Positions 19,781 through 62,871 of a stretch of 64,000 bases of DNA are shown here, one piece after another. The stretch comes from Spirochaetota bacterium (GTDB lineage Bacteria; Spirochaetota; JAHITG01; JAFGFC01), in assembly GCA_016931325.1 (NCBI GenBank), contig JAFGFC010000071.1, forward strand, positions 11,379 through 75,378, written 5' to 3'. A program made the translations under genes and the position numbers. A model generated the notes under the pieces. It was not told where the DNA came from. It was given only the letters and a program-made list of their open reading frames with translations, and ran no database searches. Numbering within the stretch: position 1 is the stretch's first letter; every line of letters begins with the position of its first letter.

Positions 19781-19814
19781 GAAAACCACTACCTCGCAAA
19801 AAATATGATATTCT

Positions 19815-19843
19815 CTATTTAACAACCATTTGGGGATATGTCA
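19815..19843 (-). promoter_or_regulatory. Sigma70-like promoter for grpE-dnaJ
   Basis: Minus strand reads TTGACA - 17 nt - TAAATA, with the -10 about 30 nt upstream of the grpE ATG. No CIRCE inverted repeat was seen. Confidence 0.45.
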
Positions 19844-19850
19844 AGATTTT

Positions 19851-19878
19851 ATTGACATATAATTTTAATTTAATATTA
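19851..19878 (+). promoter_or_regulatory. Sigma70-like promoter for argG, divergent from the grpE promoter
   Basis: TTGACA (19851-19856) - 16 nt - TATTAT (19873-19878). Confidence 0.4.
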
Positions 19879-19902
19879 TGCTATTTTAAACTACAGACTA
19901 AT

Positions 19903-19952
19903 CTAGTTCATAGTTTTAAAAGCCCAGAACTAAGAACGATGAACTATGAACC
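19903..19952 (+). promoter_or_regulatory. Operator-like array in the argG leader: two TAGTTNN heptads, an 8-bp spacer, four tandem NGAACNA heptads
   Basis: tagttca tagtttt aaaagccc agaacta agaacga tgaacta tgaaccg. Left and right halves are reverse complements (tagttca / tgaacta). Confidence 0.45.
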
Positions 19953-19976
19953 GATGTTGTTGATGGAGGAAATATT

Positions 19977-21176
19977 ATGGAAGGGATTAAGAAGATCGTG
20001 CTGGCTTATTCCGGCGGACTGGATACATCAGTTATTTTAAAATGGCTTCATTTGACCTACAAAGCCGAGATCATTGCCTATGTGGCTGATCTCGGCCAGA
20101 AAGAGGATTTTGAAGCCATTAAGAAAAAAGCTCTGCAAACAGGAGCCAGTAAGGTCTATATAGAGGACCTGAAAGAGGAATTCGTTAAGGATTATATATT
20201 TCCTGTGATAAAAGCTAATGCCATATACGAATCAAAATACCTTTTAGGGACTTCCATGGCCCGTCCGCTGATCGCGAAACGTCAGATCGAGATCGCTCAT
20301 AAAGAAAAAGCTCAGGCCGTGTCTCACGGCGCTACAGGCAAAGGGAATGATCAGGTGCGGTTCGAATTAACGTACATGGCACTGGATGATAAGATAAAGA
20401 TCATTGCCCCGTGGCGAGAATGGGACTTTAAAGGGAGAGACGACCTTGTTGAATTTGCCCGAAAACATGAAATACCCGTGCCTGTAACAAAAAAAAAGCC
20501 TTACAGCTCTGACCCTAATATATTCCATATCAGTTATGAAAGCGGCATCCTTGAAGACATCACTCAGGAAGGACCGGATGATATGTTCTCCATGACTCAG
20601 TCACCGGAAAAGGCCCCGAATAAAAGTGAATATATAAATATTGAATTTGAAAAAGGAGAACCTGTTGGGATCAACGGAAAAAAATTTCCTCCGGTTAAAC
20701 TTCTCCAGACCTTGAACTCGATGGCCGGAAAACATGGGGTTGGCCGTACTGATATGGTTGAAAACCGTCTGGTAGGAATTAAAAACAGAGGAGTATACGA
20801 AACACCGGGCGGAACAGTTCTTATTCAGGCTCATAAAGATCTGGAAGCCATTACTCTTGATAAAGACACTTTACATTTTAAAGAGATCGTGGCCCTTCGC
20901 TACAGCGAACTGGTCTATAATGGCCAGTGGTTCACTCCCTTGAGAAAAGCCCTTGATCAATTTATCGATGCCACACAAAAATATGTTACAGGAAGTGTCA
21001 GAGTAAAACTTTTTAAAGGTCACAGTTCCGTAGTAGGAAGACAATCGCCTTATTCTCTTTATAATCCTGATCTGGCTACTTTTGAGAAAGAAGAGGTCTA
21101 TGACCAGAAAGATGCCAAAGGGTTCATCAACCTTTTTGGATTACAGATGAAATACGGACATAAAGATCTTTCATAA
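19977..21176 (+). CDS. argG: Argininosuccinate synthase
   Basis: The PP-loop [13 protein letters not shown] and the conserved ArgG core (...[14 protein letters not shown]...). Confidence 0.9.
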
Positions 21177-22242: not shown

Positions 22243-22494
22243 TTAATTGGTACGTTCTCTTGCTTCATTAACGCGCAAGGGTCGGCCTGAGAAATCCGAT
22301 CCATTCAATGCTTCAATGGCTTTTATAGCATCATCATCTTCCATCTCAACAAAGCCAAATCCGCGGGATCTTCCTGTGTGACGATCCGTAACAATTTTAG
22401 CTGACAGTACAGTACCGTGTTTTTCGAACAATTCTTTCAGATCATCTTCAGATGTCTGGAACGGAATGTTCCCTACGTAAATTTTCTTCGCCAT
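22243..22494 (-). CDS. RRM-type RNA-binding protein (glycine-rich Rbp-like)
   Basis: RNP2 KIYVGNIPF and RNP1 RGFGFVEM. Confidence 0.8.
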   Translation of the reverse strand: MAKKIYVGNIPFQTSEDDLKELFEKHGTVLSAKIVTDRHTGRSRGFGFVEMEDDDAIKAIEALNGSDFSGRPLRVNEARERTN

Positions 22495-22840
22495 TAATCG
22501 TTCCTCCTTAAATTTACTAGTTCTTTATTCATCTTTTGGATGAAATATTTGATTAAAAAGCCAAATTGATATAAAAAATGGTTAGCGTTCATGATTTAAA
22601 TATGATAATAAAAATACCCTGAGACATTCACCTGAAATTTCCTTGAAATAAAAGTCTATGGATGGAATCAATATAAAGGACGCAGAAAACAGGGAAGAAT
22701 TTTAAATCAAAAAAATAATTTACACAGATATACGAAACCAATTTAATACAACAGTTCAGGGAATTACTTTTTCCTGAGATCTCCTTTTCAAAATAATGAT
22801 TTAATTTATACTATATATTTTGATTTGTCAAATATTTTTT

Positions 22841-37372: not shown

Positions 37373-37522
37373 CGGATCGTTACTTGAATGTATTTTAAAT
37401 GAATAGTTAAATAAACAATCCGTCAGTTCGAAGTTCTAGGTTCGAAGTTCAAATCTTCTGCCTTGCAATTCGACACTCTGGAATTTCTAAGACCCCTAGA
37501 AATTGCCAAGCAATTCCAAGGG
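37371..37522 (+). repeat. Structured intergenic element, copy 3: long hairpin, four GTTCNAN heptads, nested GGAATT/AATTCC hairpins
   Basis: gacggatcgtt...aacaatccgtc is an 11-bp stem with a 32-nt loop. Heptads agttcga agttcta ggttcga agttcaa (37425-37452). Outer stem ccttgcaatt/aattccaagg encloses ggaatttcta/tagaaattgcc. Confidence 0.5.
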
Positions 37523-37545
37523 ATGCGTCAGGATCAATAAAACTT

Positions 37546-38066: not shown

Positions 38067-38157
38067 TAGTTTATAGTTCTTGGTTTATTTTCATCAAACA
38101 ACGTTACAAACTGTTAATTAAAATTTCCCTAAACTAAGAACTACGAACGACGAACTA
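38067..38157 (+). promoter_or_regulatory. Second operator-like heptad array: two TAGTTNN heptads, then, 49 nt downstream, tandem NGAACNA heptads just upstream of the 38172 gene
   Basis: tagttta tagttct (38067-38080), then aaaacta agaacta cgaacga cgaacta (38130-38157). Same motif family as at argG. Confidence 0.4.
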
Positions 38158-38171
38158 AAAACCAAGTTATT

Positions 38172-38507
38172 ATGATCGAACAATACGAATTTGGAAAGAT
38201 CGTTATCCATGGAAAAACCTACACCAGTGATATCATTATCCTTCCTGACAATACCATCATATCCTGGTGGAGAAACACCGGGCATAATGTTATCAATGAA
38301 GACCTTGAAATTGTATATCATGCCAAACCAAACGTCCTTGTGCTCGGTTGCGGAGCGTATGGTGTCATGCGGGTCTCAAATGAGGTGAAGACATACTGCG
38401 ATGAGAACCGCATTAAGTTGATCATGGAAAAATCAAAAAAGGCTGTGGAATTATTTAATGCCGAAAAATCCATGTCAAAGGCTGCCGGATTTCATCTTAC
38501 GTGTTAA
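38172..38507 (+). CDS. Mth938-like domain (DUF498) protein
   Basis: About 110 aa. The GKTYTSDIIILPDNTIISWW...VLVLGCGAYG pattern resembles the Mth938/NDUFAF3-like fold family. Confidence 0.4.
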   Translation: MIEQYEFGKIVIHGKTYTSDIIILPDNTIISWWRNTGHNVINEDLEIVYHAKPNVLVLGCGAYGVMRVSNEVKTYCDENRIKLIMEKSKKAVELFNAEKSMSKAAGFHLTC

Positions 38508-41231: not shown

Positions 41232-41432
41232 TTAATTTCTTATATCTTTTCTTCTTTTTTTCTCTAATTTTCTGCGCGCTTTATTTTCTTTGTCTCTTTT
41301 TAACTTGGAAGGCTTAATATAGAACATGTGTTCTTTGGCTTTGGCTGTGATCCCTTCTTTTTCAACAAGCTTGTTAAACCTTCTTAAAGCATCATCCAGA
41401 GTTTCTCTTTCGCGTATGTTCACTCTTACCAT
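41232..41432 (-). CDS. rpsU: 30S ribosomal protein S21
   Basis: MVRVNIRERETLDDALRRFNKLVEKEGI...FYIKPSKLKR fits the S21 pattern V.V.ENE..D.ALRRFK...EK.G...FYEKP. Confidence 0.7.
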   Translation of the reverse strand: MVRVNIRERETLDDALRRFNKLVEKEGITAKAKEHMFYIKPSKLKRDKENKARRKLEKKRRKDIRN

Positions 41433-46175: not shown

Positions 46176-46258
46176 TTGACGTCCTCATGTATAATGAATT
46201 GTATAATTTAACAACAAAAAAGAGAATGTCAAGCCTATTTTTCGTTCATGGTTCATAG

Positions 46259-46306
46259 CCGAGCCTTCAGGCTCGGGGATTATAATTTCCGAACCTTAAG
46301 GTTCGG
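46259..46306. repeat. Two adjacent short palindromes in the divergent promoter region: CCGAGCC-TTCA-GGCTCGG (REP-like copy 2) and CCGAACC-TTAA-GGTTCGG
   Basis: Both are perfect 7-bp stems with 4-nt loops, 12 nt apart. Confidence 0.5.
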
Positions 46307-46350
46307 CTTTTAGATTGACATTCCTGAAGATGAGTGATATATTATAAATA

Positions 46351-58610: not shown

Positions 58611-58661
58611 ATTACGAATTAAATAGCTTTGAGAAAGCAAGTCAACTCTTTTTAGATTCTC

Positions 58662-59058
58662 GTTCGAGGTTCGACGTGCGACGTCAACGCACAGGAAGTG
58701 CGTTGGGTCAAATCGGCCTGGAAGGCTGAGATTTGACCACGAAGTTCGATGAACAGGATGGTCATCGGATCGGCTCAGTTCCCCTGCAATTCATGGAATT
58801 GCGGGGATTAAATCCCGGAAATAGCCCTGCCATTTCAAGGGACGTAGCATTTCCAGGGTAAAGTCCTTGGAATTGCTACGCAATTCCTAAGGAGTCTTAA
58901 TCCTCGGAATTTCTCGGAGAAATTCCAGAGGGATGAATTGCAGGGGAGAGGATTCGACACTCCTACATCCTGCCCCTAGAAATTTTTTATCGAAAAATTT
59001 CAGGGGTATAGTCCCTGGAATTGTACTTTGGACAATTCCTAGGGATAGGTCGTCGAAC
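58662..59058 (+). repeat. Structured intergenic element, copy 1: GTTCGAN heptads, conserved hairpin module, then five tandem GGAATT/AATTCC-type hairpins, bounded by inverted CGTTCGACG-like ends
   Basis: Left end gttcgag gttcgac gtgcgac. Hairpins caacgcac-aggaa-gtgcgttg and cccctgcaatt-catgg-aattgcgggg. Further hairpins at 58868-58892, 58904-58924, 58975-59006 and 59015-59046. Right end ggtcgtcgaacg. The module is homologous to 62672..62818. Confidence 0.55.
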
Positions 59059-59115
59059 GTATTATTGCTTGACTTTGTTAAAGATTATACTATCTTGAAA
59101 AATCTTTAAATAGAG

Positions 59116-61390: not shown

Positions 61391-61464
61391 GTGCCCATAG
61401 TTCAATTGGATAGAACGCTGGATTGCGGTTCCAGTGGTTAGAGGTTCAAGTCCTCTTGGGCACG
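61391..61464 (+). tRNA. tRNA-Arg (anticodon reads GCG)
   Basis: 74 nt. Acceptor GTGCCCA/TGGGCAC. D-stem GTTC/GAAC. Anticodon stem CTGGA/TCCAG with loop TTGCGGT. T-loop GGTTCAAGTCC. No G3:U70, so not Ala. Confidence 0.75.
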
Positions 61465-62671: not shown

Positions 62672-62818
62672 GTTCGACGCGCGACGTTCGAGGTTCGAAG
62701 TTCGACACACAGGAAGTGTGTCGGGTCGAATCCCTCCCCTGCAATTTGGAAAATTGCGGGGATCAAATCCCGGAAATGCTTCGCATTTCACAGGACATGG
62801 ATGGTTGGGATTCGACCA
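62672..62818 (+). repeat. Structured intergenic element, copy 2 (compact): five GTTCGAN heptads followed by a multi-stem module
   Basis: Heptads gttcgac gcgcgac gttcgag gttcgaa gttcgac. Hairpin cgacacac-aggaa-gtgtgtcg. Outer stem gggtcgaatccc/gggattcgacc encloses cccctgcaatt-tggaa-aattgcgggg and gaaatgc-ttc-gcatttc. Confidence 0.55.
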
Positions 62819-62871
62819 CTTTGTTTAATGATATAAGCAATTAACTATCTTTTATCTTATGGATAATAAAA

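Follow-up and report, generated by a model that had tools for sequence, protein, structure and literature searches.

The leader of argG in this Spirochaetota bacterium carries a series of seven-nucleotide units with a GAAC or GTTC core, arranged in two opposed groups. An earlier note on this DNA had taken them for either a binding array for a dedicated regulator or an RNA-level repeat within the leader, and the question raised by the locus is which of these it is, and whether it has to do with arginine at all. The analysis covered the window (the whole stretch of DNA presented here, 64,000 nucleotides) and one further contig, which together make up about 67 kb of the genome of one strain, as well as the argG loci of relatives and heptad arrays in other bacteria.

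The array and its predicted hairpin

The ORF at 19977-21176 encodes argininosuccinate synthase ArgG (Pfam PF00764 plus PF20979), with corA next downstream and grpE-dnaJ divergent on the opposite strand. The features of its leader are the following:

19852..19879, + strand: predicted argG promoter, TTGACA-16-TATTAT, sigma-70-type, 11 of 12 consensus matches
19904..19919, + strand: 5' arm, TAGTTCATAGTTTT, containing two GTTY heptads, GTTCATA (19906-19912) and GTTTTAA (19913-19919)
19906..19951, + strand: predicted stem-loop, 19906-19916 pairing with 19941-19951 (11 bp) around a 24-nt loop
19920..19926, + strand: degenerate in-register heptad AAGCCCA, in the hairpin loop and unpaired in the predicted fold
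19927..19954, + strand: 3' arm, four tandem GAAC heptads, GAACTAA GAACGAT GAACTAT GAACCGA
19966..19979, + strand: Shine-Dalgarno sequence (SD) GGAGG at 19966-19970 and argG ATG at 19977-19979

The leader reads as the earlier note had described it, with the coordinates one base off: tagttca lies at 19904-19910, tagtttt at 19911-19917, agaacta at 19926-19932, agaacga at 19933-19939, tgaacta at 19940-19946 and tgaaccg at 19947-19953, and tagttca is indeed the reverse complement of tgaacta. The description of two heptads opposed to four with a 7-bp period also stands, but the '8-bp spacer' between them does not, as it corresponds to one degenerate in-register heptad plus a change of parsing frame. 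The array is thus better written as seven heptads in a single 7-nt register from 19906 to 19954 (GTTCATA GTTTTAA AAGCCCA GAACTAA GAACGAT GAACTAT GAACCGA), with the core positions occupied by GTTC at 19906, GTTT at 19913, AAGC at 19920 and GAAC at 19927, 19934, 19941 and 19948. As had been claimed, it is placed between the argG -10 box and the ribosome-binding site (promoter at 19852-19879, SD at 19966-19970). The predicted promoter would start transcription at approximately 19886, giving a 5'UTR of about 90 nt in which the array spans from about +20 to +68; since it is downstream of a predicted promoter that is conserved, the whole element is expected to be transcribed. Its unit composition was unchanged in an independent Logan assembly of the same sample (L081, 6.6 kb), which displayed the same four GAAC units. 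Upstream of the array, a perfect 9-bp inverted repeat, ATATGTCAA-N7-TTGACATAT, extends from 19836 to 19860 across both divergent -35 hexamers (those of grpE and argG) and is conserved in the relative L082; it may represent two back-to-back promoters or a shared operator.

In the predicted fold, the opposed heptads pair as the arms of a hairpin, and of the two options in the earlier note the RNA-level repeat is the one that fits best. The segment GTTCATAGTT (19906-19915) pairs without a mismatch with AACTATGAAC (19942-19951), and this complementarity reaches the variable spacer positions (ATA/TAT). When a 59-nt segment was folded, the hairpin had an energy of -11.8 kcal/mol (z = -3.55) and none of 200 shuffles was as stable; the entire 105-nt leader was no more stable than its shuffles (z = -0.56). 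Weaker alternative registers of pairing exist for the stem because its 3' arm is repetitive, and the first two GAAC heptads sit in the 24-nt loop, single-stranded in the predicted fold. The stem ends 14 nt 5' of the SD and leaves both SD and AUG open; in the ensemble, the SD bases stay about 90% unpaired, which speaks against SD sequestration by the hairpin, and no intrinsic terminator or attenuator was found after it. Folding was also compared between strands as a test of RNA versus DNA, and none of the six heptad elements (6/6) displayed any asymmetry. Both strands fold equally well and, therefore, the folds do not favour an RNA over a DNA role.

Related heptad loci in the same organism

The heptad pattern is not restricted to argG. 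The string GAACNNNGAACNNNGAAC (GAAC-N3-GAAC-N3-GAAC) yielded six matches at four loci of the window, as compared to 0.00 in 100 dinucleotide shuffles, and GAAC-GAAC and GTTC-GTTC pairs were enriched at a spacing of 3 only, with an echo at 10. Tandem Repeats Finder, used as a motif-blind control for period-7 arrays of at least three copies, detected such arrays at about 19927, 37425, 38132, 58661 and 62672, all with the GAAC/GTTC core, and the remaining ones in the window were two low-complexity T-rich runs. All six heptad loci are intergenic, and intergenic DNA makes up about 8% of the window (p ~2e-7), a non-random placement that counts for a real element. The argG heptad array is more than chance. 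The other loci in the window are these:

37426..37452, + strand: GTTCGAA GTTCTAG GTTCGAA GTTCAAA, at the 5' edge of a hairpin-rich intergenic element
38067..38162, + strand: sibling copy between the DUF2148 and DUF498 genes, with 5' arm TAGTTTATAGTTCTTGGTTT, a loop of about 42 nt and 3' arm AAACTAA GAACTAC GAACGAC GAACTAA AAAC
46244..46257, + strand: GTTCATG GTTCATA, a two-unit copy in a divergent intergenic region, followed by two GC-rich hairpins
58662..58682, + strand: GTTCGAG GTTCGAC GTGCGAC, at the 5' edge of a multi-hairpin element of about 400 nt
62672..62706, + strand: GTTCGAC GCGCGAC GTTCGAG GTTCGAA GTTCGAC, at the 5' edge of a hairpin-rich element after nupC

The copy upstream of the DUF498 gene, which has no SD, ends 10 nt before the ATG at 38172 and has a predicted stem of 18 bp. 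Its relationship with the argG copy is also seen in the 14-mer TAGTTYATAGTTYT, whose exact matches are only at the two 5' arms (19904 and 38067). A third copy was found upstream of gyrA in a 3.4 kb contig (L211) of SRR13394437, the sequencing run that also yielded the window's ArgG; this contig was reached through the GyrA of the closest relative and its homologue P0125, labelled 'MAG: Spirochaetes bacterium'. It reads GTTCAAC GTTCATC GTTTGTC GTTTAAT, a 10-nt loop, and AAACGAC GAACGAT GAACGAA GAACGAA AAAC, and folds into a 24-bp stem (-34.4 kcal/mol, z = -8.65) whose complementarity extends, as at argG, to the variable spacer positions (GTC/GAC and ATC/GAT). Hence, a common design of GTTY heptads, loop and GAAC heptads precedes three genes (argG, the DUF498 gene and gyrA), and the pairing of variable spacer positions indicates that the arms are not simply two independent arrays built on a core motif. 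The edge of the gyrA contig (positions 1-135) resembles the 3' end of a tRNA gene, with a T-arm-like GGTTCGAATCC, and the 24-bp heptad hairpin comes directly after it; ARAGORN calls no tRNA there, as the contig breaks off within the gene.

The GTTCGAN heptads at the edges of structured intergenic elements, which the earlier note had connected with the argG units, do have the same core and period. These arrays (37426, 58662 and 62672) mostly come without a complementary GAAC arm, and for those at 37426 and 62672 there is none nearby. It follows that hairpin formation alone cannot explain why the GAAC/GTTC core has been kept, and a sequence-specific binder acting on RNA or DNA is possible.

Relatives and other bacteria

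The source lineage is sparsely sampled: the best ArgG identity was 66% among GTDB species representatives and 76% in a collection of 5.8 billion proteins. The contig with the 76% ArgG (L082) displayed the same dnaJ-grpE<>argG-corA synteny, and two others (L089 and L090) carried an ArgG of 75% identity. The promoter core TTATTGACWTAYAAT...TATAWT could be aligned and is conserved across the window and these three relatives, and the leaders 3' of the -10 box (about 115 nt in L082 and about 30 nt in L089 and L090) are unrelated. No heptads were found in these three argG leaders, nor any period-7 array of at least three copies in about 50 kb from the same relatives, and a GAAC array upstream of argG was present in none of 80 more distant argG loci (0/80). 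That the orthologous leaders lack the array speaks against a conserved argG operator. The earlier note had named two signs that would speak against its proposal, a random distribution of the motif with respect to gene starts and its absence from the argG leaders of relatives; the second is what we found, and the first is not, all six loci being intergenic.

Metagenome contigs were scanned with an exact pattern of four GAAC[G/T]AN units, and the likeness of the matches to the argG units is by construction because the search fixed the GAAC arm. Among the matches listed, many were long perfect satellites, some of them beside telomere-like repeats, and several were prokaryotic contigs with an argG-like design beside a start codon (L147, L141, L133, L148, L153 and L189). 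In L147, for instance, four GTTC units, a loop and four GAAC units are followed by 8 nt, AGGAGG and the ATG of zwf. The genes downstream of the listed elements (glcD-like, zwf, phosphoribosyltransferase, serS, Fe-S proteins, dapB) disclosed no functional theme. With respect to the nearest start, and with crude gene calls, 24 of the listed metagenomic matches had GAAC on the sense strand versus 19 with GTTC, and the elements made of inverted pairs read alike on both strands. In L141 (2560-3200), two consecutive intercistronic gaps of an Fe-S oxidoreductase operon are nearly filled by GTTCATG GTTNTTA GTT plus AAACTAT (GAACTAT)n; these copies end 4 nt before the next ATG and there is no SD.

As an unbiased control, we took 80 argG loci (L001-L080, 512 kb of unrelated genomes) and recorded period-7 arrays of at least three copies. 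There were 39, with lineage-specific units (GGAGATT or CGGGGAT, for example), and 13 of the 35 that were not of low complexity had an inverted partner array within 250 nt. The window carries about 9 arrays per 100 kb, a density similar to the roughly 8 per 100 kb of this background. Seven arrays at six of the 80 loci were within 250 nt of argG, which by a rough estimate is not above expectation because the arrays are intergenic; an enrichment specific to argG was accordingly not found across these loci. The unit GGAGATT/AATCTCC was common to several Chloroflexi contigs of the control. Among the arrays upstream of argG were a hairpin of three GTAGCCA, loop and three TGGCTAC ending 14 nt before the argG SD (L005, 2913-2965), GTAAAAC-type units facing four TTTTACG (L045, 2740-2805), and a direct array of five YYTCACG units, TTTCACG TCTCACG CCTCACG TTTCACG CCTCACG, running into the SD (L066, 2926-2958).

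Nature of the argG array

The known regulators with comparable sites did not account for the array. The ARG box is an 18-bp imperfect palindrome, usually in tandem and overlapping the promoters of arg genes. A search for the ArgR/AhrC site (TNTGAATWWWWATTCANW, at most three mismatches) gave no match in 19783-19976 and 56 in the window, with 57 expected by chance, in agreement with the earlier statement that the argG array is not a canonical ARG box. It had likewise been set apart from the Cheo/LexA box (GAAC-N4-GTTC), and rightly so, as the argG units are direct repeats with N3 spacing. The sole perfect palindrome of the Cheo/LexA type in the window, GAACATGTGTTC at 41322-41333, lies inside rpsU (ribosomal protein S21, 41232-41432, - strand) and most likely represents chance. 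Rfam searches with gathering thresholds and by E-value returned only noise in the window, the leader (E up to 10), the element at 58.6 kb and 15 metagenomic heptad loci; with no Rfam match, no terminator and the SD about 90% unpaired, a known cis-regulatory RNA (riboswitch, T-box or attenuator) was rejected.

Extragenic repeats offer a closer parallel. The argG-type elements are imperfect palindromes, extragenic, multicopy and not conserved at orthologous sites in relatives, and they share with REP/BIME and cyanobacterial STRR sequences an extragenic, multicopy and species-specific occurrence and a palindromic or tandem build. REP/BIME and STRR are frequently found in untranslated regions or in the gaps between cistrons and act on mRNA in a generic way. 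Classical REPs lack a heptad build and are tied to RAYT (Y1) transposases. The STRR of Calothrix consists of three tandem heptamers (as cited in PMC4692102), and the same 2015 work stated that no detailed literature on heptameric repeats existed at that time.

A close likeness is also seen with the TAACTGA heptamer repeats of marine Beggiatoaceae and some Cyanobacteria and Bacteroidetes (MacGregor 2015, PMC4679880). One Beggiatoaceae genome carries 169 sets, mostly just 5' of the start codons of unrelated genes and often in place of an SD; S1, Csp or CsrA binding has been proposed for them, and CspB binds one heptamer per monomer (PMC4679880). Like those sets, which have 2-6 units, the argG-type arrays are tandem heptamers, intergenic, dispersed near the starts of unrelated genes (argG, DUF498, gyrA), sometimes with the SD missing, and lineage-specific, and GAACTAA agrees with TAACTGA at 5 of 7 positions. 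In contrast, the units here (GAAC[T/G]AN) are of another sequence, heterogeneous within one array and paired with an upstream GTTY arm into predicted hairpins, whereas TAACTGA arrays are predicted to be unstructured, with one inverted case reported (PMC4679880). A strong bias of orientation towards the downstream start codon is a further mark of the TAACTGA type; the listed metagenomic GAAC arrays split 24 to 19 by crude gene calls. Geobacter metallireducens has a 'class 3' of five tandem MTYCTGA heptads in eight pairs, one of them between proB and proA, and a GGACCGG family of four heptads; the paired sites are absent from the sister species and were annotated, without experiments, as putative sites for a global regulator or for IHF/HU (PMC2700814). 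By their published description, these also are species-specific, multicopy and intergenic, with 4-5 tandem heptads in pairs and amino-acid biosynthesis genes among the neighbours, although with a different unit sequence. Finally, upstream of hmw1A in Haemophilus influenzae, the transcribed repeat (ATCTTTC)n supplies one arm of a hairpin in the 5'UTR, which RNase III cuts, with an effect on expression (PMC12721329). The argG array resembles it in being a heptamer array within a transcribed 5'UTR that forms a hairpin arm, but hmw1A has at least 11 repeats, perfect and phase-variable, which face a G-rich arm without repeats, and its target is a surface adhesin. A literature search for the heptad strings themselves gave nothing relevant. 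Arrays of this kind are, in summary, already known but poorly understood, and the argG family is a new instance.

We believe that the most plausible explanation, to which we assign a probability of about 0.6, is that the argG array belongs, as one of its copies, to a dispersed and lineage-specific family of heptad-built hairpins and is not an arginine-responsive operator, and that any effect on argG is generic and post-transcriptional, possibly nil. The proposal in the earlier note of a binding array for a dedicated argG or arginine regulator is not supported: the identical architecture precedes the DUF498 gene and gyrA, the argG leaders of the closest relatives lack it despite a conserved promoter, and analogous hairpins elsewhere precede unrelated housekeeping genes. 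The argG leader of this Spirochaetota MAG is fast-evolving, and a copy of the hairpin would have arisen in it or landed there. Once transcribed, the stem-loop could alter the stability of argG mRNA or serve as a target for a double-strand RNase, by analogy with the Haemophilus hmw leader, and its effect could equally be nil, as for many elements of the REP/SSR type. If it has a function, this is more likely that of an RNA-level stem-loop in the 5'UTR than that of a DNA operator. For argG itself the consequence is small: the array gives no grounds for postulating a new arginine regulator, and no regulon should be annotated on the strength of it. More generally, heptanucleotide arrays in intergenic DNA are common, differ between lineages, frequently stand just ahead of start codons and are little understood, and the large share of them that come as inverted hairpin pairs in the samples covered here provides a testable handle: such pairs may be cleaved by a double-strand RNase, be melted by a protein with a 7-nt footprint, or do nothing.

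A different hypothesis, which we regard as unlikely, is that a single-strand RNA-binding protein covering about 7 nt per monomer would sit on the GAAC or GUUY heptads and tune translation, the candidates being a cold-shock protein, S1 or the RRM protein encoded at 22243-22494. It would agree with the position of the GAAC heptads 10-25 nt before the start codon in both window copies, with the lack of an SD in the DUF498 gene, with two of the four argG GAAC units being single-stranded in the loop, and with the TAACTGA precedent of repeats just 5' of starts, often instead of an SD, and of one heptamer per CspB monomer. On the other hand, half of the heptads are locked in the stem, the elements are symmetric and give the same reading on either strand, and no orientation bias was apparent among the listed metagenomic GAAC arrays (24 versus 19, from crude gene calls). 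The RRM gene (22243-22494, - strand), 1 kb downstream of argG-corA, encodes an 83-aa protein with RRM_1 as its single domain, and the region upstream of it (22495-22840) is unusually long (346 nt) and AT-rich; the protein is a candidate single-strand RNA binder that nothing links to the heptads.

A broader version of the RNA-level reading is rather improbable in our opinion. Hairpins with arms of tandem heptads would constitute an unrecognised and widespread architecture of post-transcriptional control, in which a protein occupying 7 nt per monomer (a cold-shock-domain protein on the U-rich GUUY arm, for example) would bind cooperatively and melt the stem. The GTTY/GAAC version would then define a small global housekeeping regulon (argG, gyrA, the DUF498 operon and others), and the 13 of 35 inverted pairs found elsewhere would be analogous.

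We also consider it improbable that the array acts as DNA, that is, that an omega-like ribbon-helix-helix (RHH) protein or a global nucleoid-type one polymerises on its 7-bp units as double-stranded DNA and blocks argG transcription from about +20 to +68. Such operators have precedents in omega of pSM19035, an RHH protein that binds WATCACW heptad arrays in either orientation (PMC9499535, PMC2441792), and in the putative global regulator sites of G. metallireducens (PMC2700814). As in the omega operator/parS arrays, the argG units are contiguous, of exact 7-bp period and in both orientations (seven in register, two one way and four the other) with an invariant 4-bp core, and the existence of GTTC arrays without a partner arm and the equal folding of both strands would also agree with a DNA site. 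However, omega sites are contiguous, loopless and at plasmid promoters, whereas the arms of the argG-type elements are separated by loops of varying length (10, 24 and 42 nt), pair over more than the core and belong to the transcribed region, 3' of the -10 box and not over the promoter. Moreover, the orthologous leaders are without the array, the target genes are unrelated, WATCACW heptads were not enriched in the window and none was near argG, and no DNA-binding regulator, RHH proteins included, appeared among the approximately 40 window ORFs scanned against Pfam. Very improbable, lastly, is a phase-variable SSR in which slippage alters the number of heptads and switches argG expression: heptanucleotides are the most abundant class of long SSR in many bacteria (Mrazek 2007, as cited in PMC4679880) and the hmw1A 5'UTR heptamer controls expression (PMC12721329), but the four argG units are mutually different, which disfavours slippage, the independent assembly of the same sample has the identical array, and a biosynthetic housekeeping gene is an unlikely target.

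Some minor observations concern the structured elements beside the GTTC arrays of the window. The element of about 400 nt in the intergenic region that separates dinB from a surA-like gene (58650-59070) has a minimum free energy of -189 kcal/mol (z = -10.6) and is a series of CCnnGGAATTnn-loop-nnAATTCCnnGG hairpins with no Rfam match; related hairpin modules occur after nupC (62707-62830) and after PBP1A (37452-37530). Just after GTTCATG GTTCATA, between divergent genes, the GC-rich hairpins CCGAGCC-TTCA-GGCTCGG and CCGAACC-TTAA-GGTTCGG, followed by TTTT, occupy 46259-46312. The third tRNA of the window (61391-61464) overlaps the listed TTG start (61423) of the nupC-like ORF, whose true start is probably further downstream.
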